64,000 bases of DNA from an uncultured Gammaproteobacteria bacterium. Its GTDB lineage: Bacteria; Patescibacteriota; Patescibacteriia; UBA11705; JABHMO01. This document shows positions 230-55,559 of the stretch, one piece after another (the stretch's first letter is position 1; each line of letters opens with the position of its first letter). The notes under the pieces are model-generated. The model was not told where the DNA came from and ran no database searches. It was given only the letters and a program-made list of their open reading frames with translations. Both the position numbers and the translations under genes were made by a program. The stretch lies in contig CAYIDA010000005.1 of assembly GCA_964362205.1 (NCBI GenBank), positions 1 to 64,000 on the forward strand, read 5' to 3'.

Positions 230-421
230 GCGGCGAGTGAGATATAAATTATACTAATTATTTTAATTAATCTAATTATTCAAAATAATAATCAGTGACG
301 AAATCCCAATAAAAACAATTCAGATTTTAGAAATTTTTGTGATTTGAGAATTGGATATTATTTAGGTTAATTAGTATAATTAGGTCAATTAGGTTAATTC
401 ATTTTCACTTTATAATCTTTT

Positions 422-3400
422 ATGTCAAAACGAGAAGCCGGAATGCCGAGCGTGGAACAAAAATCAAATATTTCATTAAATCAAGAACAAATCGATTTGA
501 TAAAAATGCGCGCGGATGTTCGCAGGCGCGATCAGATTTTGCGCGTTGAAATCATGAATATCAAACAGCCATGGGCAACAGACGCCATGAAAGAACGCGA
601 GGAACAGGTCAGGCAAACCGTCTTGGCTGAAGCCAGAGGATATGAATCCAGCTTGGCCGGCAAATCAGCGGATGAATTATTGGCGCAGGCTGACGCGCTC
701 CAAGACAGAGCAGATGAAGCGACAAAAATTTTTCCTGATTTGGCTGTCTATCAGCTGAGCCGCGTGGTGAAGTTGCGCATGTTGGCCGGCAGTGATGTGA
801 GTAAAGAGCTGGAGATAGCCAGAAAAGCGCGCGAAAGATCAAACGTCAAATTCAATACAGCCGCGGCCAACCTTTTGCCTGACGCTATTATTCTTGGCGT
901 ACAAAAAAAATTGATTGAACGCAAACCTTTGCCTTCGCCGGAGCAGGTGGCGGTCATGGTCGCCACTGATAAAAAAATATTGGTTGATTATGCTTTGGTT
1001 CTGACGGAAAAAGAGCGGCCAGGCTTTTTGGCGTTGATTCCTGATAAAGATCGTCGCGAGGTGGCGATCATGCTGGATGAAGCGGTCGCCAAGGTTTTGC
1101 ATCAAGCCATTGTGGAAAAAGATACTGATGAAGACAAACAAAGAAAAGAAGTTCGCTTACGCGTTTTCAGGGAGTTGCAGCAAACATTGAAAGAGGGCAA
1201 AAAATCAGATAAATTCATGGCCGCGAAATTGGCTCGGGCAATGCTGAAATTGGGTGGAGATTCGCGTTTGTTGTTGCTTGAACTTGCGCGCGATGAAATG
1301 GAAGGCGAGCGTTTTGGCGTCAGCAATGAAGCAGAATACTTGCCTTACGTACTTGGAGTTTTAATGAAAGAATTCGATGATTATCGCATTAATGACGTTG
1401 CTCTTCAGCTTGTTGGCGATACTCGCACCCCCGTTCCGGTGGCGATCAGTTTATTGCACAAATTGGTTAGGCGCGGTTATGTACCGGCAACAGTCGATGA
1501 ATGGTGGAAGAAGCGAAACGAAGGATTTGACTCAACAAAGAAATATTCTGAATATAAAGAGTTGCAGGAGGATCATAAAAAACGTTTGGTGCTCTTGCAA
1601 AAAGTCATTGCTGATCTCGGCGTGGTGCCGAGTAAGGATGTTTTGGAATTTTTGGATGATGATAAACGCTGGAAAGGCGCGTCGCTCGATGAACGCGTTG
1701 AAACTATTCAAAAGAGCCAAGCTGAATTTGACAAAGCTCAAAGTCAGCATGAATTAGTCGGCATTCTAGCGCAAGACGAACACAAAGCCATGATTTATTA
1801 TCTTCTGCACGGCGGAGACGATCGGTTTAATTTGATCAATAATTACGGCATTGATAAATTCAAGGAAATGTTAAAGATGATTGTTGACTTGAAAATTCAC
1901 GAGAAACCAATTCAAATGTTTGCGCAATCTTTGAAAAAAGCCGGTATGAAACCAGCGGAAATTGAAAAAATTATTGAACGGCTGCGCGCCGGACATTTTC
2001 CATTGGATCATCCGGGACAAGATACCCAGGAAGCCAGCTTTGAAGTCAGCGAGAACGCGGCGGTGAAGAATGCTAATGCGGAAATCGGTCGGGTTTTAGG
2101 AAGAGAACAGTTAGGTGTGGTTTTGCTTTTCCCGATGTATCGCGATTATTTGGAAAAAGAGAATGGTGGTCAGGCCAAAACATTTCTGAAGGAGATGCAG
2201 GCCGCGCATACTTTCTCCGACCGATTGAGAATGATTGGAGAAATTGAAACAGCTTATCCTGATTTTCAAGCAAAAGTTAAAGCAGAGCTTGAAGATAGCT
2301 GGAAAGCTTTGGGTGAGAAAATGGTTTTGGAGGTTTCCCTGGAACAAGTTTTTACCGGCCAGTCCGTGCCGGTGCGCGGCGAAGAACTTATTCCGCGCCT
2401 GAATTCCAAACGAGTTGATTTGAAAAGAATGAAAAAAGATTTGCTCGTGGCTTTGCGCGGCGGAAATGAAAAATTGGAAAAAATTTACGCGGAAATATCA
2501 AAAAAGAAAAAAGCGCGTTCCGGCCTGTCCGCCGGACTGGAAAAGCAAACTGATCCTGCGAAGAAAAAGGAATTGGAAAAAAAACTGGAAGAACTTGATC
2601 GAGATTTGGGCGATCTTGAAGCGCAGAAAGCGCTCGTGAATAACGCAAAAACATCAGAACGTTTTTCGCATTTGGGTAAAGCCGAGAAAGATGAGGAAAT
2701 TGAACGCATTAGTCGAGAAATCATTGCGCTCACAGAAAAATCAGCCAGTGCCATTTTCACTTACTTAACGATGCAAGTATTGGGAGAAGACAGATTGCGC
2801 GAACAGGATGTGGCGTTGGTTCAGGAAATGGAGAGCCATTTGCAAGGGCCGTTTCAAACCGTGAACGATTTTTTGACTTATCAACCGACCGGCAAAGAAA
2901 AAACAGAAAAGAAAAATCAGCGCGTGACTTTGTGTTATCTGGATAAGGTTAAACGTTTGATGAATATGGTGCGGTTTGCTGACAGTAAAATTTGTTGTTT
3001 TTCCAGTATTAATTATGAAATGAAGGTTCAACACGAAACCGCGAACAAATATTGGGTGGCATCAATCAATGCTGATCCGATGTCATTTGTTATTTCCATG
3101 GAAATTCCTCAAGGCGAAGTAGCGGCAGAAGCGCGGCAATCAAAGTCAGTGGAAAACCTCGGGTTTATTTTTGGCAGTTTTTCAATTGACAATGATGGTT
3201 TGCCGGGAATAATGTTGAACGGTATTTATTATGCTCCGGGCATTGAGGACAGCAAGCAGGTGGCGGCGATTATGGAAAAGATTGAGAAGATTTTCGAGGG
3301 CATGCCGCTCAAACATATTGCTCTGGCCAGCCAACACGGCGGATCAATCAAATTACCCAATGAATATACCAATGAGGCGGTGGAATTGACTCGTTTGCGC

Positions 3401-3532
3401 GGTCTTGATGACAATAGCGGTTCGCCGGAAACAAAAGTTTACGATGATATTGGAACTAACGAAAGTTTGAATACTGCTAAGGTTTATAATGCCGGTGACA
3501 GTGGCAGTTTGTGGCATAAGAGGGTTAAATAG
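422..3532 (+). CDS. Large hypothetical protein (1036 aa), coiled-coil/charged, no recognised domain
   Basis: Long uninterrupted ORF with no competing frame. The ATG follows an AT-rich palindromic leader. A rho-independent terminator lies at 3546-3583. Confidence 0.8.
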   Translation: MSKREAGMPSVEQKSNISLNQEQIDLIKMRADVRRRDQILRVEIMNIKQPWATDAMKEREEQVRQTVLAEARGYESSLAGKSADELLAQADALQDRADEATKIFPDLAVYQLSRVVKLRMLAGSDVSKELEIARKARERSNVKFNTAAANLLPDAIILGVQKKLIERKPLPSPEQVAVMVATDKKILVDYALVLTEKERPGFLALIPDKDRREVAIMLDEAVAKVLHQAIVEKDTDEDKQRKEVRLRVFRELQQTLKEGKKSDKFMAAKLARAMLKLGGDSRLLLLELARDEMEGERFGVSNEAEYLPYVLGVLMKEFDDYRINDVALQLVGDTRTPVPVAISLLHKLVRRGYVPATVDEWWKKRNEGFDSTKKYSEYKELQEDHKKRLVLLQKVIADLGVVPSKDVLEFLDDDKRWKGASLDERVETIQKSQAEFDKAQSQHELVGILAQDEHKAMIYYLLHGGDDRFNLINNYGIDKFKEMLKMIVDLKIHEKPIQMFAQSLKKAGMKPAEIEKIIERLRAGHFPLDHPGQDTQEASFEVSENAAVKNANAEIGRVLGREQLGVVLLFPMYRDYLEKENGGQAKTFLKEMQAAHTFSDRLRMIGEIETAYPDFQAKVKAELEDSWKALGEKMVLEVSLEQVFTGQSVPVRGEELIPRLNSKRVDLKRMKKDLLVALRGGNEKLEKIYAEISKKKKARSGLSAGLEKQTDPAKKKELEKKLEELDRDLGDLEAQKALVNNAKTSERFSHLGKAEKDEEIERISREIIALTEKSASAIFTYLTMQVLGEDRLREQDVALVQEMESHLQGPFQTVNDFLTYQPTGKEKTEKKNQRVTLCYLDKVKRLMNMVRFADSKICCFSSINYEMKVQHETANKYWVASINADPMSFVISMEIPQGEVAAEARQSKSVENLGFIFGSFSIDNDGLPGIMLNGIYYAPGIEDSKQVAAIMEKIEKIFEGMPLKHIALASQHGGSIKLPNEYTNEAVELTRLRGLDDNSGSPETKVYDDIGTNESLNTAKVYNAGDSGSLWHKRVK

Positions 3533-3545
3533 TTGAATTGCACGG

Positions 3546-3583
3546 AAAACACAGCGAGGTATGATCGCTGTGTTTTGTTTTAA
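3546..3583 (+). terminator. Rho-independent terminator
   Basis: Stem acacagcga / tcgctgtgt with a 7-nt loop, followed by tttgtttt. Confidence 0.75.
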
Positions 3584-3703
3584 TTTAGTGGAGGTTTATA
3601 TGAAAGAAAGCTTGACAGATTCATTGGAATAGCATATAGTGTGACATTGAATCAGTTGATTCTGTTTTGTCCTTTTCCAAATAAACCAAACGGAGGTGAT
3701 TCT

Positions 3704-4294
3704 ATGGGAAGTACTTGCGATGTTTGCAAGAAAGTGCGAAAACGCGTTCATCGTAATCTTCTGACTGGTAAATACGTTTGCGCTAATTGTTATTGGATGG
3801 CTCGCTATTATAATCCCGCCTCTCATGAACGTTGTATGAAATGCGGCAAGAAAAAGCCGGTGCAGGCGCGTGATGAGTCTGGTCAGGCCATTTGTCCAAA
3901 TTGTCGGCTCAAGAATCCTGCTATTCACGAGCGATGTTTCAAATGCGGAAAAATGAGATGGGTGGAAATTCGCACAAGTTCTGGTAAAGCTATTTGCGGT
4001 CGTTGTTACAATGTATCTCGTTATCATGATCTATCCACTCACGAACGTTGTATGAAATGCGGCAAGAAGAAGCCGGTGACAAAACGTAGTAAAACCGGCG
4101 AAGCTATTTGCTCAAATTGTTACAAAAAGGCTCGCTATCACGATTCATCCACCTTTGAACGATGCTCAAAATGTGGCGAAACAAAACCGGTGGCAACACG
4201 CAACAAAAATGGCAAGGCTATCTGTCATAAATGCCGTTCACGCGATATTCGGAAGCAATGTTTAAAAATGAAGGAAAGGAAGGTTGCCACGTGA
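3704..4294 (+). CDS. Basic protein made of 5 tandem C4 zinc-ribbon units (CxxCG-x15-17-CxxC, each preceded by HERC)
   Basis: ATG at 3704 is preceded by GGAGGTGA at 3693-3700. The unit 'HERCMKCGKKKPV..R...G.AIC.NC' repeats five times. The protein is K/R-rich. Confidence 0.7.
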   Translation: MGSTCDVCKKVRKRVHRNLLTGKYVCANCYWMARYYNPASHERCMKCGKKKPVQARDESGQAICPNCRLKNPAIHERCFKCGKMRWVEIRTSSGKAICGRCYNVSRYHDLSTHERCMKCGKKKPVTKRSKTGEAICSNCYKKARYHDSSTFERCSKCGETKPVATRNKNGKAICHKCRSRDIRKQCLKMKERKVAT

Positions 4295-4914
4295 AAGGTA
4301 TCTGTGTTGTGTGCGGTCTTGAAAAGACTGTTTACAAAAACAGAAAAACCGGCAAGCAGACTTGTCATAGTTGCAGTGAGAGAGCTCGTTTCCACGCTGT
4401 TTCCAGTCACGAGAAATGTTTCAAGTGTGGTGAGATTAAAGCAGTGCATTCTCGCGATAAGAATAATCGGGCTGTCTGCAACGTTTGCTATTATCGTCAT
4501 TTTGTTAGCCGTGAAAAGTGCCGGCAATGTGGCAGGGTTCAAAAAGTGTATTCACGGAATGAAGCAGGGCAGCCTGTTTGCCGCAATTGTTTTAATCATG
4601 ATTCTTCTAATCACGAGAAGTGTTGCCAGTGCGGTCAGCTTAAAATAGTGCATGGACGGAGCGAATCCAATCAACCCATTTGCAACAGCTGTTATCGCAA
4701 AAATCCATCCACCCACGAAAAGTGCATCAAGTGCGACCAGGTAAAACGGGTATGTGTAAGGCATGAACTTGGCGCCATCTGCGAGAACTGTCGAGGCCAA
4801 GATCCCTCAACACACGAAGAATGCATCAAGTGCGGTCGAGTCAGACGGGTAAACAGCAGAGATAAGTCCGGTCGAGCTATTTGCCCTGCGTGTAATCAAA
4901 AAAGCAAGTGCTAA
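4291..4914 (+). CDS. Second tandem zinc-ribbon array protein (6 HEKC.KCG...C..C units)
   Basis: The frame has the same repeat architecture. A likely GTG start at 4291 lies after GGAAAGGAAGG and overlaps the upstream stop by 4 nt (GTGA). Alternative ATGs at 4231 and 4258 are in frame. Confidence 0.6.
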   Translation: MKGICVVCGLEKTVYKNRKTGKQTCHSCSERARFHAVSSHEKCFKCGEIKAVHSRDKNNRAVCNVCYYRHFVSREKCRQCGRVQKVYSRNEAGQPVCRNCFNHDSSNHEKCCQCGQLKIVHGRSESNQPICNSCYRKNPSTHEKCIKCDQVKRVCVRHELGAICENCRGQDPSTHEECIKCGRVRRVNSRDKSGRAICPACNQKSKC

Positions 4915-5012
4915 TATCAACGGTCCCAGTCATAAAAGGTTGGGACTTTTTCATTTTTTAAAAATCGTATTATGTGGTATAATAAACATTGAAGTAAAAT
5001 TAAAGCATTAAT

Positions 5013-5249
5013 ATGTTTTTAAGAATTTTGATCGGAATAGTCATGTGCGTAGTCGGATTTTTTATGGTCAAAAAACCGGACGCCGCACTTCGGGCAATCG
5101 GCCAGGTGGACTTCGCGGAAAAATTTTTCAGCGGCGGCAGTTATACTTTTTTTCAGATATTCGGCGTGGTTTTGGTTATGCTCGGTTTTGCCATAATTCT
5201 GAATTTGCATCTACTACTGCTCGGCAAATTCTATAATTTGTTTTTTTAA
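5013..5249 (+). CDS. Small hydrophobic (2-TM) hypothetical protein
   Basis: 78-aa ORF with two hydrophobic stretches. No homology recognised. Confidence 0.35.
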   Translation: MFLRILIGIVMCVVGFFMVKKPDAALRAIGQVDFAEKFFSGGSYTFFQIFGVVLVMLGFAIILNLHLLLLGKFYNLFF

Positions 5250-5250
5250 C

Positions 5251-5625
5251 ATGCTCGGTTATAAGAAAAAACTGGGCGCGTGGGGAGAAGAACTGGCGTT
5301 AAAATATTTTGAAGAAAAAGGTTATCGCTTGGTTGAAAAGAATTGGCACGCTTCCGGTCAGAAACAGATTGGTGAAATAGATTTGATTGTCGGGCTTGGT
5401 CAGGATTTGGTTTTTGTTGAAGTTAAAACCAGAACCACCAAAGAATTCGGTTTCGCGGAGAACGCGGTTGATCGATTTAAAAAAGAAAAAATCAGCAGGG
5501 CGATCAATCAGTTTATTTTTCTGCACGAGCAATATTGTGATCATTATCCGAGGTTTGATATTTTGGTGGTGGAAATTTTTGGTTTAACACCGAGGTTTGA
5601 ACATTTCTCGAACGTTGAACTGTAG
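5251..5625 (+). CDS. yraN: YraN family (UPF0102) predicted endonuclease
   Basis: Matches the GEELALKYFEEKGYRLVEKNW...GEIDLIV...LVFVEVKTR pattern of the UPF0102 family. Confidence 0.8.
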   Translation: MLGYKKKLGAWGEELALKYFEEKGYRLVEKNWHASGQKQIGEIDLIVGLGQDLVFVEVKTRTTKEFGFAENAVDRFKKEKISRAINQFIFLHEQYCDHYPRFDILVVEIFGLTPRFEHFSNVEL

Positions 5626-5803
5626 CCGCTTAAACTGAATTGGAAAGAATACATGATCTACTGATTACTAATGATATACTGATTACCGTTGACTATAATT
5701 TTAGTTGAGGTTTAATCAGTAGATTACGTAACTATCAGTACATCTGTATTATTTTGCTTCAAAGTTTTTAATCTTTCAATCTATTTTAATAATCCCAAAC
5801 TTT

Positions 5804-6139
5804 ATGTCAGAAGAAACACAGCAATTAAGCTCCAAGGACGTGTCGGACAATAAAGTAATCTCCGCCATCGGTTATATCGGCGTACTGTGCTTGATTCCGC
5901 TTTTGTTAAAAAAAGATAGCAAGTTCGCGCAGTTTCACGCCAAGCAGGGATTGGTTTTGTTTATCGCGGAAATCATGGTTTCTTTTGTGAATATTGTTCC
6001 ATTGCTTGGACAAATTGTTTGGTTTTTCGCCGGTTTAGTTTTTTTGGTGATGTCAGTGATTGGTTTACTGAAAGCCTGGAAAGGCGAGTGGTGGAAAATA
6101 CCGTATCTGCATGAATACGCGGAAAAAATTAATATTTAA
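5804..6139 (+). CDS. Small membrane protein (DUF4870-like, FHAKQG motif)
   Basis: 111 aa with two TM segments and a 'FAQFHAKQGLVLF' motif. Confidence 0.6.
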   Translation: MSEETQQLSSKDVSDNKVISAIGYIGVLCLIPLLLKKDSKFAQFHAKQGLVLFIAEIMVSFVNIVPLLGQIVWFFAGLVFLVMSVIGLLKAWKGEWWKIPYLHEYAEKINI

Positions 6140-6149
6140 GTTGTAAGGA

Positions 6150-6423
6150 TTGACAGCGTTGTATATAGTTTAATCTATAGATTCAATGAATATTCCGACA
6201 AATTGGTTTATCGCAGTTCTCCGAAGGGTTACTTTTTGACGCCCTGCACCAGTCGCTACGCCTGCCTGCGCGGCAGGGCTCCGGTGCAGGGCAAGCCAAA
6301 AGAGTTCACCTTTACCGTGAATTCGACGAAGGAGTGGTTTACGGCCAGACCCCGTGAAATGCAATGTAATCACGATAAACTATTAAATAAGTGGTTTCAT
6401 TATAAAACGTAAACAACGTTGGC
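6150..6423 (+). repeat. ~250-bp TIR-flanked structured element, copy A (candidate ncRNA or MITE). It is paralogous to 24520-24772 on the opposite strand.
   Basis: GC-rich island in AT-rich DNA. The ends AGCGTTGTATATAG (left) and AAACAACGTT (right) form an inverted repeat. The conserved 5' block is aatctatagattcaatgaatattccgacaaattggtttatcgc and the conserved 3' block is ccagaccccgtgaaatgcaatgtaatcac. The internal 9-bp stem is ccctgcacc...ggtgcaggg. Two six-frame ORFs called here are rejected as compositional artefacts. Confidence 0.6.
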
Positions 6424-6434
6424 AAATCTAATAT

Positions 6435-7880
6435 TTGATTATGGAAAATTTAAAACGAACAAAAATTGTTTGCACGCTGGGGCCGACTTCTGACAAGAAA
6501 CCGATTATCAAGCGTTTGATCAAAGCAGGCATGAATGTCAGCCGGCTTAATTTTTCGCACAATGTTCACTCTTATCATTTGAAAGTAATGAAGATGGTGA
6601 GGGCGGCGGCTATGGAATGCGCTGAACCGGTTGCAATTCTTCAAGATTTGCAAGGTCCGCGGATTAGATTGGGCGAATTGTCGGAAACTGGAATTAATCT
6701 GAAAAATAAAAGCCGTGTAATATTGACTACGGCTGATTCGACGGATGGGAAAAAGATTCCAGTGACTTACAAAAAAATGCATGAAGACGTTAAGGCTGGA
6801 GAAAGAATTTTGATTAGCGATGGTTTGATCGAGTTAAAAGTAAAAAGCGTTCAAAAAAAAGATATTATCTGCGTGGTGATAAACGGCGGTAAAATTTTTT
6901 CTCATAAAGGCATTAATTTGCCCGATACCAATGTTCGAATCGAGGCCTTGTCCGAGAAAGATAAAGAAGACCTGTTGTTTGGTGTGAAAAATAAAGTTGA
7001 TTTTGTGGCCTTGTCGTTTGTGAGAACCGCGAAAGATATTTATAATCTTAGAAAATTAATAGAGAAATATGAACGCCAACTAAAAATCAAAGCAACGTCG
7101 CCGATCAGAATTATCGCGAAAATAGAGCGGCGCGAGGCGATTGAAAACATAGACGAGATTTTGGCGTCGGCCGATGGTTTAATGGTGGCGCGCGGGGATC
7201 TTGGAATTGAAATGCCGGCTGAAGAGATTCCTTTGCTCCAAAAAATGTTGATTGACAAATGTTTGCACGCGGCCAAGCCAGTGATCGTGGCCACGCAAAT
7301 GTTGGAGTCCATGATCAATAATCCGCGACCGACCAGAGCCGAGGTTTCAGACGTGGCTAACGCCGTGATTGATCACACTGACGCGATCATGCTTTCCGGC
7401 GAAACGGCCAATGGGAAATTTCCGGTTGAGGCAGTGGAATATATGACGAAAATCGCGATCAATACGGAAAAATCAACTTATGATGATTTTGTTCTGCAGG
7501 AAAAAGTGAATCAAATTACTCCGGCGAATGACGCGGTGGCCGGCGTAGCCAAAGTTTTGACCGAGCAAGCAAATGTTAAATTAATTTTAGTTGCCTCATT
7601 GTCCGGGCATTCCGGCCGCGTGGTGAGCCGTTATCGGCCGGAAAAACCCATCTATGTTGCTTGCGATGAGCATCGGGTCGAACGTCAACTGAATTTGAAC
7701 TGGGGACTCAAACCGTTTGTTTTGCCCGCTTGTCAAACGATAAACAGCTTCATTGATCAGGCAACAAATTATTTGAAAAGGAAAAAAGTTGTTAAAAAAA
7801 ATGATCGAATCACGATTGTGTCCGGCATCACCATGGGGAAGTCGGGGACAACAGATTTTATAGAAATAAAAAAAATATAA
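6435..7880 (+). CDS. pyk: Pyruvate kinase
   Basis: N-terminus KIVCTLGPTSDKK...MNVSRLNFSHN and the MVARGDLGIEMP signature. The 481-aa length is consistent with pyruvate kinase. Confidence 0.95.
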   Translation: MIMENLKRTKIVCTLGPTSDKKPIIKRLIKAGMNVSRLNFSHNVHSYHLKVMKMVRAAAMECAEPVAILQDLQGPRIRLGELSETGINLKNKSRVILTTADSTDGKKIPVTYKKMHEDVKAGERILISDGLIELKVKSVQKKDIICVVINGGKIFSHKGINLPDTNVRIEALSEKDKEDLLFGVKNKVDFVALSFVRTAKDIYNLRKLIEKYERQLKIKATSPIRIIAKIERREAIENIDEILASADGLMVARGDLGIEMPAEEIPLLQKMLIDKCLHAAKPVIVATQMLESMINNPRPTRAEVSDVANAVIDHTDAIMLSGETANGKFPVEAVEYMTKIAINTEKSTYDDFVLQEKVNQITPANDAVAGVAKVLTEQANVKLILVASLSGHSGRVVSRYRPEKPIYVACDEHRVERQLNLNWGLKPFVLPACQTINSFIDQATNYLKRKKVVKKNDRITIVSGITMGKSGTTDFIEIKKI

Positions 7881-8150
7881 ATGTTTAAGCATTCAAAATA
7901 TTTGTTGCTTATATTTTTCATTTTAATGGTTTTGATAGCCATGATTTTAATTTACTCAAATGTTAATTCAACCGACAAAGTGGTTTACTTCGCTTCCAAA
8001 CAAGCGCCTTCTTGGTCAGAATTAATCGGTTGTGTGATTCGCGGCGGAGCGGTTGAGAGCGCGCCGGCCGGCAGTTCAGATAGCGCTGACTGTGAGAAGA
8101 AGACTGAAAGTTGCCAGAATAGCGCGCGATATTTATGTCATTATCGTTAA
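7881..8150 (+). CDS. Small hypothetical membrane-anchored protein
   Basis: 89-aa ORF with an N-terminal TM segment. It overlaps the next gene start. Weak support. Confidence 0.3.
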   Translation: MFKHSKYLLLIFFILMVLIAMILIYSNVNSTDKVVYFASKQAPSWSELIGCVIRGGAVESAPAGSSDSADCEKKTESCQNSARYLCHYR

Positions 8151-9280
8151 AAATAAAAGCAGTTAATTTTTGGGAAGCAGTGGCGGTTTTGACCGGTACG
8201 ATTATTGGCGCCGGTGTTTTGGGGTTACCTTTTGTCATTGCCAAACTGGGCGCGTTGCCCGGACTGGCTATGTTGCTCGTTTTGGGATTAGCGTCACTCA
8301 TTTTAAATTTGATGTTCGCGGAAGTCATTTTGCGTACACGTTACCGCCATCAGCTCGCCGGTTACGCGAGAAAGTACTTGGGAAAATTCGCTTTCACTTT
8401 GGAAACCGTTTCATTCCTCGTTGGCGGCTTTGGCGCGCTCACCGCTTATTTGATTGGCGAGGGAAAGGTGCTGACTGCTTTGTTCGGCGGTTCGGAGATG
8501 ACGAACGCGCTGATTTTTTTTGTTGTGACCGCGATTATTTTGTTCGCCGGGTTGAAAATTTTAAAAGTATTTGAACTATGGATGGTGCTCGCGCTCTTGG
8601 CGGTTGTTTTTTCCATTTTTATTTTTGGTTTTTCTTCGGTAGATCTTTCTAATTATAAAAACATTCAGATGAACGGCTGGTTGGTTGCTTACGGCGTAAT
8701 TCTTTTCGCTTACGGAGGCGCGGCTTCCATTGTGCCACTGCGAGAAATTTTACGTGGACATGAGCAACAAGTGAAACGAGCTGTTATTGTTGCGACCGTT
8801 ATTCCAATTGTTGTTTATATTTTATTCAGCTTAATCGTGGTGGGCGTGACCGGTCTCGCGACCACGGAAGTGGCGACCGTCGGACTGGGCGAAAAATTAG
8901 GACAGTACATGATTATTTTTGGCAATCTTTTCGCTTTTTTTGCCATGGGCACAAGTTTTTTAACGGTCGGAAACACGCTCAAAGAATTTTTGCATTATGA
9001 TTTGAAATTATCGCGCATTGTTTCATGGGCGCTGACCTTGATTGTGCCACTCTCAATATTTTTATTTGTGGCTCGCGGTTTTATCGATACGCTGGGCGTG
9101 GTGGGCGGTCTGGCTTTTGGGTTATCCGGTATTATTTTGGTCTTAATGTTTTGGCGCGCCAAAAAGCGCGGCGATCGATTGCCTGAATTTCATTTGTCAA
9201 AATTGAAAATCGTTGGTGGCGCGCTCGTTTTAATGTTTTTGTTTGGGTTGGTTTATACGGTTTACGGTTTTCTGAATTAG
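8135..9280 (+). CDS. Amino-acid permease (aromatic/Trp-Tyr permease-like transporter family)
   Basis: Polytopic membrane protein with the N-terminal 'GTIIGAGVLGLPF' motif typical of amino-acid transporter families. Confidence 0.7.
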   Translation: MSLSLKIKAVNFWEAVAVLTGTIIGAGVLGLPFVIAKLGALPGLAMLLVLGLASLILNLMFAEVILRTRYRHQLAGYARKYLGKFAFTLETVSFLVGGFGALTAYLIGEGKVLTALFGGSEMTNALIFFVVTAIILFAGLKILKVFELWMVLALLAVVFSIFIFGFSSVDLSNYKNIQMNGWLVAYGVILFAYGGAASIVPLREILRGHEQQVKRAVIVATVIPIVVYILFSLIVVGVTGLATTEVATVGLGEKLGQYMIIFGNLFAFFAMGTSFLTVGNTLKEFLHYDLKLSRIVSWALTLIVPLSIFLFVARGFIDTLGVVGGLAFGLSGIILVLMFWRAKKRGDRLPEFHLSKLKIVGGALVLMFLFGLVYTVYGFLN

Positions 9281-43190: not shown

Positions 43191-46100
43191 ATGGCTAAGT
43201 TAGAGGCATCGTTACCAAAAAAACAACAAGACGAAATTGATAAGATTGAATCAACCGAACCGGAAGAACGGCCGGAAGCAAAGGTTGAGCTCAAAGTTGT
43301 TCCTGATTTAAAAAAAGAAGCAGAGATCTTTTTGGGTGGTGCAAACGCTTTGATGCAGCGTTTTGAGAGTTTTGTTTCAAAGCTGGAATCATTTGGCGCG
43401 ACCGATGAAAGCAAGGTGCTCCTCGAAAAAGCCAAAGCTAAACATCAAGAGTTTTCTGTGTTGATGGAAGAATTTAAAAAGCAAGCTGAACTTCATGAGA
43501 AGAGGACCAAGCTCGATGAAAACGTAAAGGAACTGCATCTTGATTTTAATCGCGCTAAAGATAATGAAAAGCAAAAAGCAGCTTTGCGCGGAAAGATTGA
43601 GCAAGCTGAAGAGGCGCTCTATCAAGCGAAGAAACCGGCCGAGGTCAATCTTAGTGCACATGAAAAAGCAATTGCCGAGCTTGAAATGGAGAGTGAAAAA
43701 ATCGGCGGAGAATTTAAATCCGGAGAAACGGTTAAATGGAAATCTGAAAAAGGCGAGGAGTTGGCTGGCGAGATCGTTGGCCCAGCTGAAAGAATCGGTT
43801 CAATAATCGTTAAAACCGAAAAAAATCCGGGTGGTTTTGCGATTCAAAAAGGCAAATTGGAAAAATTTGTAAAAACAATTGAAGAGCGACCCTTCGATGC
43901 GACTCAGGGTGACATAACGGAGCGGGATGATACAAAAAAAGAAAAGTCTGAAGCAGCGGAATTGATTGGTGGTGCGCAAGATTTTGAATCATTGGCGCAG
44001 GCCATTGAAAAGATCGGTGAAATAAAAGGGATGGATGGGAAGGTTTATGGAGCAGAAATATTAAAACAAATCATTCAAGATATTTCAAAACATTTACCTG
44101 AAAACCATAGCCCGCTTGTGAATTTAATTACCAGAAACGAAGGGTTGCGCGATAAAGTAAGAGAACTTTTGCAGAATAAGCGATTAGAAATAAAACGCAA
44201 TGATTTTGCGGACAAAGACGTTAAATTAAATCGCGAATATGGCACGGTGACCGGTTGGCTGAAACGCGCGCTTAGTTCAACCAATTATCTTGAAGCGAAG
44301 GTTGCTCGCGATGAAGCTTATGAAATTTATGGCAAAGAAAGAGCAGAAGCGGTGTTGGCCAATGTGGAAAAAATGATGGGCGAACAAATAAAATTGGCTG
44401 ACTCGCGTGCCGAAGCGTTTAATGACGCCAAAGGCTGGGGAGCTCGAGCTTATGATGTTTATAAAAATAACCCACTCTTTAAAAAATTTAATCGAGCGCG
44501 ATTGATTACCAATATAGGTCTTATGGGTGCTGGTTTTGTTATTGGTGCGCCGGCAATAGCTGCGACGTTAGGAGGCGGATATATTGCTTGGCAAGTACTT
44601 GGCCGCGGTTTGGGTGGCGTTGCTTCAACTATCAGTTCATATGACATGATGAGTATGATCGCGCGCAACAAAGGTACGAAAGTTTTGTCAAAAGGACAGG
44701 AAGGAGAGTTGCAGCAATATAGCGATGAGCAAGGACTTTCCAAGTTTAAAAGATTTTTTAACAGAAAAGTTAAAGTTGGTGATCGCGAGGTTGGAGCCAG
44801 AGATTTATATGAACAAAAGAAACTTGAACTGGAAACAAAACAGGCGAAGAGTTTGAGCAATGAACGCTTGGATGAATTGATTGAATATTATGAAGCGGTC
44901 GTGGCCGCGGATGGCAAAAAACCGTCAGAAGACCCTAAGTATTTGATGCTCATGCGCGAGAAAGCAAATCGTTTCAAGAAAGCTTTGGGTGGCGAGAATG
45001 AAGCTGTCAAAGATATTGTCGAGGGGGACGCGTTTGATGAAATTAAACAAGCGGAGAAAATAAAATTGACTGATTATTTAAAACAAAAGTTTTTAGTGGA
45101 AACTGTTTTGTTTGAAAAAATGAGAACCGCGACCGGTGACGCGACTGCTCGAAAAAATTCTAAAGAATATCAAGGTTGGAGTGCTGGACAGATCAAATTG
45201 CAAAAGCAGTATGAAGCGCTGACGCCAGAATTGCAGATATTGGTTGATCGTTTCATTCAGAGTCACAAACAGCCGGTCATGGAAATGCTTAATCCGAAAA
45301 ACAGCGATGAATTGAAAGGCATTAAAGCAGGTGAAGTTGATGAAGCTGGTGTCTGGGCTGCGGATTGGAAATTTAATCCGGTTTTAACTGATGAGATTGA
45401 GGAGCTTTTGAATCAAAATGAAGTTTTAAGTCAAATGGCGGCTGAGGCCGGAGAAGGAGAGATGAAAAAATTTGTCAGCGCGGTGGAGGGACGTGATCAA
45501 AAGGTCGAACAAAAAACAGCGGCTTTACTTAGGTTTTGCGAAAAAGGGATAAAGGAGGCGCAGGAAATGATTGATAATAAACGAACGGAAAAAGGATATT
45601 CTGCGGTTGCCTGGAAAAAAGCGCGTCAAGCTATGGCGGTTTTGATTGGCGTTGGCATGGGTAGTGGATTTATTCAGAAACACATCATGGAGTTTTTGGC
45701 GCCGTCTGTTTCAGCCGAGATATTGCCTGCTTCCGGCAAGGGAGGAGTCATCGCGCATGTCAGCGAAGCAGGAGGAGGAGTAGAGAGTGAAGGTCTTATA
45801 AATCTTGATAAATTGGAGAAGGCCGGCGTCCTCAGACCGGATTGGCAGAAGCATATCAGTTATGATGTTGTTAAAGATCCGTCTAAAGTACAAAGTGTGA
45901 TAATGGCCAGAGCCAGAGAAATATTTTTGATTGAGAAGGCTCTTGATCAAGCCCAAGCAGCCGGCAACGCAAAGGAATTTAAATTATTGCAAGGAGTGTT
46001 GGATCAAAAAATAGCAAAAGCTGAAAGTCTTTATGGAAATGTTTTTAGTGAACCGCCGAAACTTGAAGCGCCGGTTGAGGTTGTTTCGGAAAAACCTGCG

Positions 46101-47807
46101 TTAACTGTTGAAGAGCCAAAAGCGCCGATGAAAGCGGCTGATATTGAGCCGGCAAAAGCGCCAAAAGTGATTGAACGGCCGAAAGTTGGTCGAGTGATTG
46201 ATGCGAAACCAGCGTCAACGGTTGAAGAGATGAAAACTGGAAAGCCGGAAATTGTGGAATCTTCAGTGATCATGGGTGGTGGACAAGATGAGCTGATAAA
46301 AGCTGGCGTTCTAAAAAAAGGTTTTTGGTCTGAAGTAAAGCCAAGCGTATTAAAAGGCGAGGTCGGTTATCATAGATCGCAGATTTTGGCTTCTGCTCAA
46401 AATATTTATTCAACAGAGCAAGCACTATTAAGGGCGAAAGAAATTGGTGATGTGAAAGGATTTAGGTTATTACAGGAATCTTTAGAAAAAGATATTGCTG
46501 CCGTAGAAGCAAAATATGGTAATATTTTTGAAGAACCGCCGAAAATTGAACCGCCGGTTGAGGTTCCAACTGCAGCAACAACTGAAGCTGTTTCTAAACC
46601 AGCAATTAAAGACGTTAAATATGATGCGGCCAGTGAGCATAAAATAATAACTTCTGGCGAAGTGTCTGTTGACGCTCAAGGGTTGGTTAAAGCCGGTGTT
46701 CTAAAGGAAGATTGGCATAAATTTGTTCAATCAAAAATTCAAAATCCAAGTATGTTGACGACAGTGGTTGAGGGTCGAGCGAGAAGTATTTTATTAACTG
46801 AGCGTGCGTTGATAGACGCGAAAGAAGCCGGTGATTTGAAATCATTTAATGCTTTACAAGCAAAACTGGATAAGCAGATATTTTTAGCCGAAAAAAATTT
46901 AGGCAAAATTTTTGAAAAACCACTGACTATTGAACCGCCAGTTGGAACTATCCAACCAGAGGCGGAAGTTGTGGTTGAAAGGCCAAGAGGCGCGATGAGA
47001 GTAGCTGACGTTGAATCAGGCAAAACAGCGGAACGAGCGATTGAAGTTAAAACAACCGCAAAAGTAATTGAAAAAATTGATAAACCGGAAATAGAAAAAC
47101 CAGTTGCGCCAAAAGTCGCGGAACAAGTTGGAAAAGTTAAAGTGGAACATCCACGAGTTGAAGAAACGGTTGAAAGAATTGAAACCGCTGAGCCGGATCA
47201 TGATTTTGATGAACGCGCCACGGAAGCTGAACTGGATGAAATAGCAAAAAAATATGGAACAGGGTCTGCTGTATCTCACAGAGCGGATGATGCGTTTGCT
47301 GAAATGGACGATAAACCCACTTCTGGATATAAGCCATTACAACCGCATACGGCTAGACCCAGAATTATTGAAACTACTGATGAAGCGCCAAAACCGAGAG
47401 GCGGCAGGGTTCAGGTTGAAGACGTTGAAACCAAACAGTACGGTGATCGCGTGAAGTTTAGAAACGGACGTTTATCAATTAAAGAAGATCAGATATCAAC
47501 CGATCGTCTGCCGACTCGGCCGCGCATTACTCCTGAAGATCTTAAGATTCAGAAAGAAGATCCTGATCCTCTCTGGAAAAAGCTGTTGGGTTCAAAGCAT
47601 AAAGATGAATTTCATTATCATAAGCCGAAGATTAGTCTGCATGAAGAGGCTTTGCATTCTCGCGCTCGCTTACTTCCTGAATTGAAAACAGCGTTGGAAC
47701 AAGCTGAAGAAGCCGGTGATAAAGACGCGGCTTATGCCATTCGTCAGGAGATGAATAAAATTATGAATTCCATGGGCGGAAGAAATCGGGGATCGTTTAG
47801 ACCGTAA
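43191..47807 (+). CDS. Giant hypothetical protein (1538 aa): N-terminal coiled-coil, central TM hairpin, three ~100-aa tandem repeats, basic C-terminus
   Basis: One long frame. Hydrophobic pair NIGLMGAGFVIGAPAIAATLGGGYIAWQVL. Repeats GxxxLxKAGVL(R/K)xDW...ALxxAxxxGxxKxFxLLQxxLxxxIxxAExxYGNxFxEPPKxExPVEV occur three times. The terminator at 47825-47856 follows. Confidence 0.85.
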   Translation: MAKLEASLPKKQQDEIDKIESTEPEERPEAKVELKVVPDLKKEAEIFLGGANALMQRFESFVSKLESFGATDESKVLLEKAKAKHQEFSVLMEEFKKQAELHEKRTKLDENVKELHLDFNRAKDNEKQKAALRGKIEQAEEALYQAKKPAEVNLSAHEKAIAELEMESEKIGGEFKSGETVKWKSEKGEELAGEIVGPAERIGSIIVKTEKNPGGFAIQKGKLEKFVKTIEERPFDATQGDITERDDTKKEKSEAAELIGGAQDFESLAQAIEKIGEIKGMDGKVYGAEILKQIIQDISKHLPENHSPLVNLITRNEGLRDKVRELLQNKRLEIKRNDFADKDVKLNREYGTVTGWLKRALSSTNYLEAKVARDEAYEIYGKERAEAVLANVEKMMGEQIKLADSRAEAFNDAKGWGARAYDVYKNNPLFKKFNRARLITNIGLMGAGFVIGAPAIAATLGGGYIAWQVLGRGLGGVASTISSYDMMSMIARNKGTKVLSKGQEGELQQYSDEQGLSKFKRFFNRKVKVGDREVGARDLYEQKKLELETKQAKSLSNERLDELIEYYEAVVAADGKKPSEDPKYLMLMREKANRFKKALGGENEAVKDIVEGDAFDEIKQAEKIKLTDYLKQKFLVETVLFEKMRTATGDATARKNSKEYQGWSAGQIKLQKQYEALTPELQILVDRFIQSHKQPVMEMLNPKNSDELKGIKAGEVDEAGVWAADWKFNPVLTDEIEELLNQNEVLSQMAAEAGEGEMKKFVSAVEGRDQKVEQKTAALLRFCEKGIKEAQEMIDNKRTEKGYSAVAWKKARQAMAVLIGVGMGSGFIQKHIMEFLAPSVSAEILPASGKGGVIAHVSEAGGGVESEGLINLDKLEKAGVLRPDWQKHISYDVVKDPSKVQSVIMARAREIFLIEKALDQAQAAGNAKEFKLLQGVLDQKIAKAESLYGNVFSEPPKLEAPVEVVSEKPALTVEEPKAPMKAADIEPAKAPKVIERPKVGRVIDAKPASTVEEMKTGKPEIVESSVIMGGGQDELIKAGVLKKGFWSEVKPSVLKGEVGYHRSQILASAQNIYSTEQALLRAKEIGDVKGFRLLQESLEKDIAAVEAKYGNIFEEPPKIEPPVEVPTAATTEAVSKPAIKDVKYDAASEHKIITSGEVSVDAQGLVKAGVLKEDWHKFVQSKIQNPSMLTTVVEGRARSILLTERALIDAKEAGDLKSFNALQAKLDKQIFLAEKNLGKIFEKPLTIEPPVGTIQPEAEVVVERPRGAMRVADVESGKTAERAIEVKTTAKVIEKIDKPEIEKPVAPKVAEQVGKVKVEHPRVEETVERIETAEPDHDFDERATEAELDEIAKKYGTGSAVSHRADDAFAEMDDKPTSGYKPLQPHTARPRIIETTDEAPKPRGGRVQVEDVETKQYGDRVKFRNGRLSIKEDQISTDRLPTRPRITPEDLKIQKEDPDPLWKKLLGSKHKDEFHYHKPKISLHEEALHSRARLLPELKTALEQAEEAGDKDAAYAIRQEMNKIMNSMGGRNRGSFRP

Positions 47808-54908: not shown

Positions 54909-55559
54909 TTACTTTTTCTTTTTTTCTGAAGTTTTTTTCGTCGCAGTTTTTGCCTTAGTTTTTTTATCCTTGGCAGTTTCTTCGGCGATTTCCACTTTCT
55001 TGATTTCCCCTGTTTTAACAGCGGGAATCGGCTTTTCGTTTTTTTCTTTTTCAACCGGAGCGTTTGGAGTCAATATCCTGATAAGTTTATCAATTTTGGA
55101 ATTAAGCATTGTTAATTGCTCGGCCACATTGCCTGAATCCTTGCTGGAGTTTTCGTTGCCCTTGCCGAAACAGTCGCGGCAAAATACAGGTTTGCCTTCT
55201 CTTGGTCTGAATGGCAATTGGCATGATTGACCGCATTTATCGCAAACAGCATCATATCTCGGCTTATCGCCAAAATTTGATCTTTCACGTCTGTCGCCAA
55301 AGCTTGGTCTTTCGTGTCGATCGCTGTTGAATCTGGTTGGTCGCTCATCGCCACCTTTTTGCTTGCCGAAGCAGTCACTGCAGAAGACCGGTCTGTCTCC
55401 GCTTGGTCTGAACGGCAATTCACAGCTGACCCCGCATTCACTGCAGGTTGCGCTGTGCATAGCTGGACGGCCTTCATCTCTGTCGCTAAAGGAATTGTTG
55501 CTGAATTTACGGCTAAAACCGCCACCTGGCCGTTTACCGTCTCGCTTAAAATTTCCCAT
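54909..55559 (-). CDS. Double CxxC-x17-CxxC zinc-ribbon protein with Lys-rich C-terminal tail
   Basis: Two copies of C.ECG..C.LPFRP...PVFC.DCF, each flanked by RP/ER-rich low-complexity sequence. C-terminus KKTKAKTATKKTSEKKKK. Confidence 0.8.
   Translation of the reverse strand: MGNFKRDGKRPGGGFSRKFSNNSFSDRDEGRPAMHSATCSECGVSCELPFRPSGDRPVFCSDCFGKQKGGDERPTRFNSDRHERPSFGDRRERSNFGDKPRYDAVCDKCGQSCQLPFRPREGKPVFCRDCFGKGNENSSKDSGNVAEQLTMLNSKIDKLIRILTPNAPVEKEKNEKPIPAVKTGEIKKVEIAEETAKDKKTKAKTATKKTSEKKKK

Follow-up and report, generated by a model that had tools for sequence, protein, structure and literature searches.

The stretch considered here, 64,000 nt of contig CAYIDA010000005.1 (GenBank assembly GCA_964362205.1, from an uncultured groundwater bacterium labelled Gammaproteobacteria and placed by GTDB in the Patescibacteriota; its whole length is referred to as the window), raises at positions 3704-4914 of the forward strand the question of whether two overlapping open reading frames (ORF1 and ORF2), each filled with small four-cysteine units, represent one broken gene or a pair of genes, and what such strings of fingers may serve for. 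The best reading of the sequence is that the locus comprises two complete, translationally coupled paralogous genes in one promoter-to-terminator unit; taken together with their relatives, these coupled finger-array genes rather probably encode zinc-dependent binders of nucleic acid, with double-stranded DNA (dsDNA) as the most probable ligand. Both proteins belong to a large, uncurated bacterial poly-zinc-finger family, the stand-alone Patescibacteria form of which is undescribed in the literature searched, and among characterised proteins the finger region of the TnsF target selectors comes closest to it.

The reading frames and their finger units

The coordinates of both frames were reproduced by independent gene callers on contigs L010 and L011. 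The frames, the translation signals read from the sequence, and the finger units, the internal-type ones being assigned by unit hidden Markov models (HMMs), are the following:

3692-3696, + strand: Shine-Dalgarno GGAGG of ORF1, 7 nt before the ATG
3704-4294, + strand: ORF1, ATG start, 196 aa, with one N-terminal-type finger, four internal-type fingers and a 19-aa basic tail
3716-3790, + strand: ORF1 finger 1, N-terminal type, C-x2-C-x17-C-x2-C
3833-3904, + strand: ORF1 finger 2, internal type
3935-4006, + strand: ORF1 finger 3, internal type
4049-4120, + strand: ORF1 finger 4, internal type, modelled by AlphaFold
4163-4234, + strand: ORF1 finger 5, internal type, modelled by AlphaFold
4235-4291, + strand: C-terminal tail of ORF1, RSRDIRKQCLKMKERKVAT, 19 aa, spanning the ribosome-binding region of ORF2
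4270-4283, + strand: Shine-Dalgarno-like purine-rich GAAGGAAAGGAAGG of ORF2, 7 nt before the GTG
4291-4914, + strand: ORF2, GTG start, 207 aa, with one N-terminal-type finger and five internal-type fingers
4303-4374, + strand: ORF2 finger 1, N-terminal type, (M)KGICVVCGLEKTVYKNRKTGK
4417-4488, + strand: ORF2 finger 2, internal type
4519-4590, + strand: ORF2 finger 3, internal type
4621-4692, + strand: ORF2 finger 4, internal type
4723-4791, + strand: ORF2 finger 5, internal type, x15 loop
4822-4893, + strand: ORF2 finger 6, internal type

The five tandem Cys4 units in ORF1 and six in ORF2, which had been pointed out in a preliminary description made from the letters alone, were borne out, all 11 fitting the pattern C-x2-C-x15-17-C-x2-C and recurring every 33-39 aa (first Cys at aa 5, 44, 78, 116 and 154 of ORF1 and at aa 5, 43, 77, 111, 145 and 178 of ORF2). 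The loop between the knuckles comprises 16 residues in nine of the 11 units, 17 in ORF1 finger 1 and 15 in ORF2 finger 5. The longer motif written in that description, opening with H-E-(R/K)-C, holds as an idealised consensus, but literally it fits only two of the 11 units (ORF1 aa 41 and 113); its lead-in is found as H-E-[RKE]-C in seven units, while the first unit of each ORF is without H-E. The array stands far above chance, because proteins shuffled with their composition preserved give almost no units (mean 0.04 for ORF1 and 0.11 for ORF2, maxima 1 and 2, respectively). The products are indeed very basic, as had been stated, with isoelectric points of 9.9 (ORF1) and 9.3 (ORF2), 11-12% Cys and 20-25% Lys plus Arg.

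The unit HMMs were built from homologues alone (58 first units and 190 internal units), with the window sequences left out, and all 11 window units score 32-56 bits with them. The first finger of each ORF is of the N-terminal type (41.7 bits with the first-unit HMM vs 28.7 with the internal-unit HMM for ORF1, and 47.5 vs 28.2 bits for ORF2), whereas the remaining nine are clearly of the internal type, at 32-56 bits with the internal-unit HMM. Between the fingers lie linkers of 14, 10, 14 and 14 residues in ORF1 and of 14, 10, 10, 10 and 10 residues in ORF2, with the conserved inter-finger sequence (A-R-Y-H)-D-P-S-T-H-E-K. At the DNA level no tandem repeat was found by TRF. No history of duplication could be read from the matrix of unit identities, in which the units are closer within an ORF than between matching positions of ORF1 and ORF2. 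When the two proteins are aligned, the ORF1 tail falls opposite the first part of ORF2 finger 6.

One gene or two

The signals around the pair and at its junction are as follows:

3546-3576, + strand: terminator-like hairpin of the upstream 1036-aa gene, a 12-bp stem followed by a T-run
3612-3640, + strand: sigma-70-like promoter candidate, TTGACA-17-TATAGT, 11 of 12 consensus matches
4261-4267, + strand: candidate -1 slippery heptamer T_TTA_AAA in the frame of ORF1, at which a slip would join ORF1 to ORF2
4282-4357, + strand: stable predicted mRNA structure, -28.2 kcal/mol, z = -3.8, with the GTG in an unpaired stretch
4922-4947, + strand: terminator-like hairpin closing the two-gene unit, from hairpin prediction

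ORF1 and ORF2 are taken as two genes because the junction carries no indel, ORF2 has a Shine-Dalgarno sequence of its own and opens with an N-terminal-type unit, and the two proteins are colinear paralogues. ORF1 and ORF2 align colinearly from residue 1, with 38% identity over 190 aa, and ORF2 opens with MKGIC.VC...KNRKTGK, as do approximately 60 small homologues. The 4-nt overlap, in which the ORF1 stop and the ORF2 GTG start share GTGA, had been given correctly in the preliminary description; its alternative start at 4231 found no backing, as neither of the in-frame ATGs, 4231 or 4258, has a Shine-Dalgarno sequence that could serve it, while a GGAGG-like sequence is found at the same place in the homologues, among which a GTG start is common. 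The junction was compared in five contigs, representing at least four samples or sequencing runs and two strains: it is 100% identical to the window in L010 (ENA ERZ1292641), L011 (Logan ERR3858130) and L013 (Logan ERR3858132), and in the second strain, L015 (GCA_038057815.1) and L016 (SRR32696713), the identity is 99.2%, with 0 gaps and the same two frames. The pair represents a separate transcription unit, because the hairpin at 3546-3576 ends the upstream gene, and at the ORF1-ORF2 junction neither a promoter-like site nor a strong terminator was found.

Among the three gene structures that had been offered previously, namely one ancestral gene split by a frameshift, a programmed frameshift and a coupled pair, the last is favoured by the data. 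A recent frameshift mutation that split a single ancestral 11-finger gene, as fission or early pseudogenisation, would fit two ORFs that overlap one base out of frame and the existence of fused relatives with internal N-terminal-type fingers, one of which, P0104, has a basic 19-aa junction in frame; it is nevertheless improbable, as neither ORF is disrupted and each has a good ribosome-binding site, both strains share the arrangement, ORF1 and ORF2 align as whole-gene paralogues, ORF2 opens with a unit of the N-terminal type, and the basic junction reads as a translated Shine-Dalgarno region, so that duplication followed by fusion in P0104, with the direction deduced, fits better. A programmed -1 ribosomal frameshift at U_UUA_AAA, yielding an 11-finger fusion beside the separate products, appears very improbable in spite of ORF2 lying in the -1 frame, a canonical X_XXY_YYZ heptamer inside the 21-codon overlap window and a significantly stable RNA structure 3' of it (-28.2 kcal/mol, z = -3.8); such a fusion would be viable, judging from the single-ORF relatives of 10-12 fingers with an internal N-terminal-type finger (P0104, L040 and P0010). 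About 0.2 heptamers are expected by chance in the overlap window (background 0.96% per codon), however, and the spacer between heptamer and structure is 14-16 nt instead of the usual 5-9 nt, which does not suit a stimulatory structure; the slip would also be unneeded by ORF2 with its own Shine-Dalgarno sequence, start codon and family N-terminal unit, and among the loci found there is no second lineage with a tandem pair in which conservation could be judged. As for an assembly or sequencing artefact, that is, one ordinary gene with a spurious single-base indel, out-of-frame overlapping ORFs are its typical signature, but the junction is identical or indel-free in the five contigs, being gap-free across the ENA and Logan assemblies (L010, L011 and L013) and the second strain, which comes from a different assembly and a different study (L015 and L016), and an assembly frameshift is thereby ruled out, leaving the artefact practically out of the question.

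Around the -10 box of the candidate promoter lies an imperfect inverted repeat, ACAGATTCATTG (3615-3626) and CATTGAATCAGT (3645-3656), 83% complementary, which could be an operator; repeat searches in both intergenic regions revealed no obvious binding-site array. The divergence between the strains is mosaic, with only three differences in the 1.2-kb finger pair (0.25%) when window positions 400-6140 are compared with L015, as against about 9% in the gene for a 78-aa membrane protein (5013-5249) and about 7% in yraN (5251-5625), and with differences clustered within the gene for the 1036-aa protein, which suggests inter-strain recombination or a recent sweep of the finger locus.

Annotation of such loci calls for caution, since in Cys-rich repeats long spurious ORFs arise in the remaining frames and on the complementary strand as well, here at 4304-4648 (+), 3596-4027 (-), 4225-4542 (-) and 4552-4800 (-). 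In the NCBI record of the sister strain, GCA_038057815.1, ORF2 was called as a 109-aa ORF in the wrong frame (L015 4333-4662), and other callers placed the ORF2 start at the ATG at 4231 or 4258. Exact-sequence look-up did not find ORF1 and ORF2 in the protein collection, yet its contigs L010 and L011 carry gene calls of identical coordinates and lengths; for ORF2, the translation of the GTG start as V instead of M in the query may be a part of the reason.

Fold, family and recombinase-fused relatives

The AlphaFold2 model of ORF1 fingers 4-5, obtained from a 54-sequence alignment with a predicted local distance difference test score (pLDDT) of 92.8, has in each unit a short strand, a CxxC knuckle, a beta-hairpin and a second CxxC opening a 10-residue helix that runs into the linker, the second CxxC (C34 and C37) being located where strand 3 ends and the helix 35-44 makes its first turn. 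The unit is predicted to be a treble clef of GATA-like topology instead of the zinc ribbon named in the preliminary description, as a classical zinc ribbon, with both CxxC on beta-hairpin turns and a three-stranded sheet, is rejected by the modelled helix at the N-terminus of which the second CxxC stands. One zinc ion per finger, bound by four Cys, is likewise predicted, because the Cys4 pattern is invariant and the predicted fold confident. No solved structure of a relative was found. When a di-finger profile was compared with the PDB, the top matches were the double fingers of GATA-1 and GATA-3 (E = 1.6e-4 and 6.9e-4, respectively). The earlier failure to recognise a named family was justified, for in Pfam only the generic DZR_2 (PF18912), a matter of generic CxxC spacing, is matched (33.1 bits for ORF1 and 25.3 bits for ORF2, at a gathering cut-off of 27), and NCBIfam and PHROGs yielded no specific family for either protein.

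With the GATA finger (C-x2-C-x17-C-x2-C, PF00320) the units share four Cys ligands at near-equal spacing, C-x2-C-G, the hairpin Arg, G-x2-[LIV]-C and a second knuckle that opens the helix, and GATA4 superposes at 1.7 A over 33 residues. However, the window loop is one residue shorter (16, range 15-17), the T-P-L-W-R-R signature is missing, no Pfam GATA match was obtained for the window proteins at E <= 1, the profile similarity in the PDB is marginal, and the bacterial arrays reach 12-17 units vs one or two GATA fingers. Membership in the GATA family was rejected by the shorter loop and the missing Pfam match, and the similarity may be a convergence within the treble-clef fold. Eukaryotic C2H2 arrays resemble the bacterial ones in their many tandem small zinc modules, in the conserved linker (TGEKP in C2H2, DPSTHEK here) and in the variation of finger number between orthologues, with some neighbouring units being recent duplicates (L005 vs L008; L024 and L036), but the C2H2 fold is beta-beta-alpha with Cys2His2 ligands, the sequences are unrelated, and for the bacterial proteins DNA recognition is putative. 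As regards DZR_2, ORF1 lies above its gathering score and each match spans two adjacent units, whereas ORF2 falls below the cut-off, and the helix predicted at the second knuckle differs from the two beta-hairpin knuckles of that family. The archaeal C(P)XCG micro-proteins of Haloferax (HVO_2753 and HVO_0758; PMC11241148, PMC10716476) are also small proteins with Cys4 sites only and a CxxCG first knuckle, and an HVO_2753-like protein gave a weak PDB match (E 0.14); unlike the window proteins, they are shorter than 70 aa, form no long tandem arrays, and have no significant sequence similarity to them.

Word-indexed homologue searches found few relatives (2, 7 and 1 matches), and the family was revealed by an exhaustive profile search, which retrieved 1302 clusters (50% identity) at E <= 1e-3, 617 of them at E <= 1e-10, with the family-wide consensus E-x-C-x2-C-G-x2-[KR]-P-V-x2-R-x3-G-x-[PA]-[IVL]-C-x2-C-Y-x-[KR]. 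Stand-alone arrays have 2-12 fingers and come from Patescibacteria wherever the source organism is named. Among them, 35 array loci with 2-10 fingers each were located in Patescibacteria genomes and metagenomes, eight in GTDB genomes labelled Falkowbacteria, Saccharibacteria and, once, Gammaproteobacteria, and 27 on metagenome contigs. Each of these loci holds a single array gene, and therefore the tandem pair of the window is regarded as a lineage-specific duplication. In the viral contigs searched no relatives were found. The first finger of the family, M-x-G-[ITV]-C-x-[VI]-C ... V-x-[KR]-N-R-K-[TS]-G-K, is placed at about residue 5 and is present in both window ORFs; the internal finger [HE][KR]-C-x2-C-G-x2-K-x-V-x2-R-x3-G-x-[AP]-[IV]-C-x2-C-Y, with linkers of 10 or 14 residues carrying D-P-S-T-H-E, is likewise found there. 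A C-terminal cap finger, C-x2-C-K-E-T-K-V-I-Q-A-L-G-L-C-x2-C-Y-x3-R-R, followed by a tail of the type ...AAHPA, characterises many members but not all, and is an optional feature, because it is absent from several of them (both window ORFs, P0005, P0006, P0007, L004, L006 and L007).

An N-terminal-type finger also occurs in the middle of the single-ORF relatives P0104, L040 and P0010. In P0104 this internal finger (ITGICFFC...) is preceded by a 19-aa basic linker, RARQLRKKKKREERRKKKV, a layout equal to that of the ORF1 tail RSRDIRKQCLKMKERKVAT followed by (M)KGIC, so that P0104 looks like a tandem pair fused by read-through of a Shine-Dalgarno region. Identical neighbouring units are found in L024 and L036, and the syntenic loci L005 and L008 have three and seven fingers, respectively (cap included). 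From these comparisons of sequence, the arrays appear to grow both by duplication of units and by gene duplication with subsequent fusion, which is the probable direction of change. A count of the differing positions was made on only 24 pairs of recent duplicate units and, being this small and confounded by the two linker types, was left unused. The proteins P0010 (490 aa, JGI) and P0175 (182 aa, NCBI MFA7309233.1) fall into one 90%-identity cluster and represent a 12-finger Patescibacteria protein, of which MFA7309233.1 is the C-terminal 182 aa only; annotation may frequently cut long arrays short or divide them.

Long relatives combine the array with other domains. Array and GIY-YIG are joined in P0041, P0050 and P0107, of which P0041 and P0050 also match Phage_integrase (P0050 above the Pfam cut-off, P0041 below it), and the P0041 locus has the order integrase (YRec), 210-aa protein, helix-turn-helix (HTH) protein, array protein, and array+integrase+GIY-YIG. 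In actinobacterial proteins of 700-880 aa (e.g., Streptacidiphilus WP_037607575.1) the array is followed by a domain of about 400 aa; such a long array protein matches 258 actinobacterial plasmids, and at both plasmid loci examined it stands in an operon of tyrosine recombinase, HTH protein and array protein. A tyrosine-recombinase fold is found in the long relatives, the layout of which is the Tsy architecture, YRec-HTH-TnsF(-GIY-YIG). TnsF has been described as a protein with multiple N-terminal zinc fingers and a part derived from a tyrosine recombinase, which binds a 200-bp dsDNA fragment of comM in an electrophoretic mobility shift assay (EMSA) and selects the integration site (Faure et al. 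2023, PMC10293859). The supplementary list of TnsF relatives in the same work includes the actinobacterial WP_085915795.1 and WP_203775029.1, which have the same finger units, and with the window-derived di-finger profile these score 64.6 and 59.6 bits, respectively. In the P0041 locus (L045) two adjacent finger-array genes, 4057-5964 (635 aa) and 6001-8601 (866 aa), lie downstream of the integrase and HTH genes; the Tsy layout given in the published account has a single TnsF (PMC10293859).

The window proteins and TnsF have in common an N-terminal run of Cys4 fingers, with C-x2-C-G-x4-V-x2-R-x3-G-x-P-x-C-x2-C in the listed actinobacterial members, and those actinobacterial TnsF relatives also have a short-loop final cap unit (...GLCxxC), as in P0069. 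Unlike TnsF, however, the window proteins consist of the array alone, ending after the last finger with neither a core-binding nor a catalytic recombinase domain; they are further set apart by a finger type specific to the N-terminus, at residue 5, and by a DPSTHEK linker that is strongly conserved. Their similarity to the finger region of the two proteobacterial Tsy-type sequences compared from the supplement is only weak, and the TnsF operon (YRec and HTH for Tsy; TnsABC and TniQ for Tn6022) is unlike the neighbours of the window pair.

Proposed function and its meaning

In the proposed mechanism, each finger would bind one zinc through a CxxC knuckle, a beta-hairpin and the second CxxC at the start of the helix, a structured linker is predicted to join the fingers, and the proteins would attach to nucleic acid, dsDNA being the likeliest, along which the fingers would lie side by side; their cellular role may be that of a regulator or a nucleoid-associated protein, and the two paralogues might recognise different sites or act together. 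Binding of dsDNA is proposed by analogy, because the TnsF proteins that have been studied, relatives of which carry the array, bind specific dsDNA, and the nucleic-acid-binding "beads on a string" of the preliminary description would fit this evidence.

The principal rival is that the arrays bind RNA (rRNA, tRNA or mRNA) or the ribosome, serving as basic zinc-finger chaperones of RNA or as accessory proteins of the ribosome, which is rather unlikely; that the fingers mediate protein-protein contacts, in an anti-sigma-like, adaptor or scaffold role, is quite improbable. Several points weigh against the reading as coupled dsDNA binders. RNA or protein binding is also performed by treble-clef fingers, and weak matches were obtained to eL40, RanBP2-type fingers, CsfB and ClpX-ZBD as well. 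DNA binding and cellular role of the stand-alone proteins are deduced from the analogy with TnsF, and their fold and zinc are predicted. The finger regions of proteobacterial Tsy-type TnsF (n=2) score only weakly with a broad profile (25.5 and 17.5 bits) and near noise with window-derived profiles, and in the passages on TnsF considered here its dsDNA binding is not dissected down to the finger array (PMC10293859). Only three single nucleotide polymorphisms within the finger genes separate the two strains, too few to gauge selection on both frames. The genomic context gives no functional hint, because the 64-kb window contains no Tsy component (YRec, HTH or GIY-YIG) and there is no conserved neighbour across the 35 loci. 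The C-terminal domains of P0069 and P0041 had no tblastn match in the window.

The neighbours of the finger pair are the 1036-aa protein without a significant family match, the 78-aa membrane protein, YraN, and a DUF4870 protein; neighbouring proteins are identical to NCBI MEK7512375.1 and MEK7512379.1, and the gap between these accessions fits three proteins between them. The gene for the 1036-aa protein (422-3532, +), directly upstream of the finger genes, is found at >= 90% identity in related metagenome-assembled genomes, and its product has no significant Pfam match and nothing in NCBIfam or PHROGs; a 1538-aa ORF (43191-47807, +) also has no significant Pfam match. A second, unrelated zinc protein of 216 aa (54909-55559, -) shows the motif C-x2-C-G-x4-PFRP-x3-[KR]-PV[FY]C-x2-C and contains Pfam zf_Tbcl_2 (PF23477, "probable treble clef zinc finger"; 104 bits) in two copies. 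A vault-like 848-aa protein (13208-15754, +) is also encoded in this Patescibacteria genome; it carries SPFH/Band 7 and a vault repeat besides the shoulder domain of the Major Vault Protein (93.6 bits).

Tandem multi-finger arrays with a conserved linker are characteristic of DNA-binding proteins in eukaryotes, and engineered zinc-finger tools are founded on them, while in bacteria, to our knowledge, only the N-terminus of TnsF has been said, in a passing remark, to have "multiple zinc fingers", and the literature searched on prokaryotic zinc-ribbon and treble-clef arrays contains no description of the stand-alone family. A more far-reaching proposal, which is speculative and has only a small chance of being right, is modular DNA recognition, in which each treble-clef finger, kept in register by the DPSTHEK linker, would read a few base pairs and specificity would shift by unit duplication or gene fusion; in Patescibacteria such proteins might then make up one of the main classes of transcription or nucleoid factors, or act as decoys on the target sites of TnsF-guided transposons. 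Close relatives in this family differ in finger number, and whole genes appear to be duplicated and fused. Should modular reading of DNA be true, it would explain the choice of targets by Tsy and Tn6022-type elements and provide a compact natural scaffold for programmable DNA binding.

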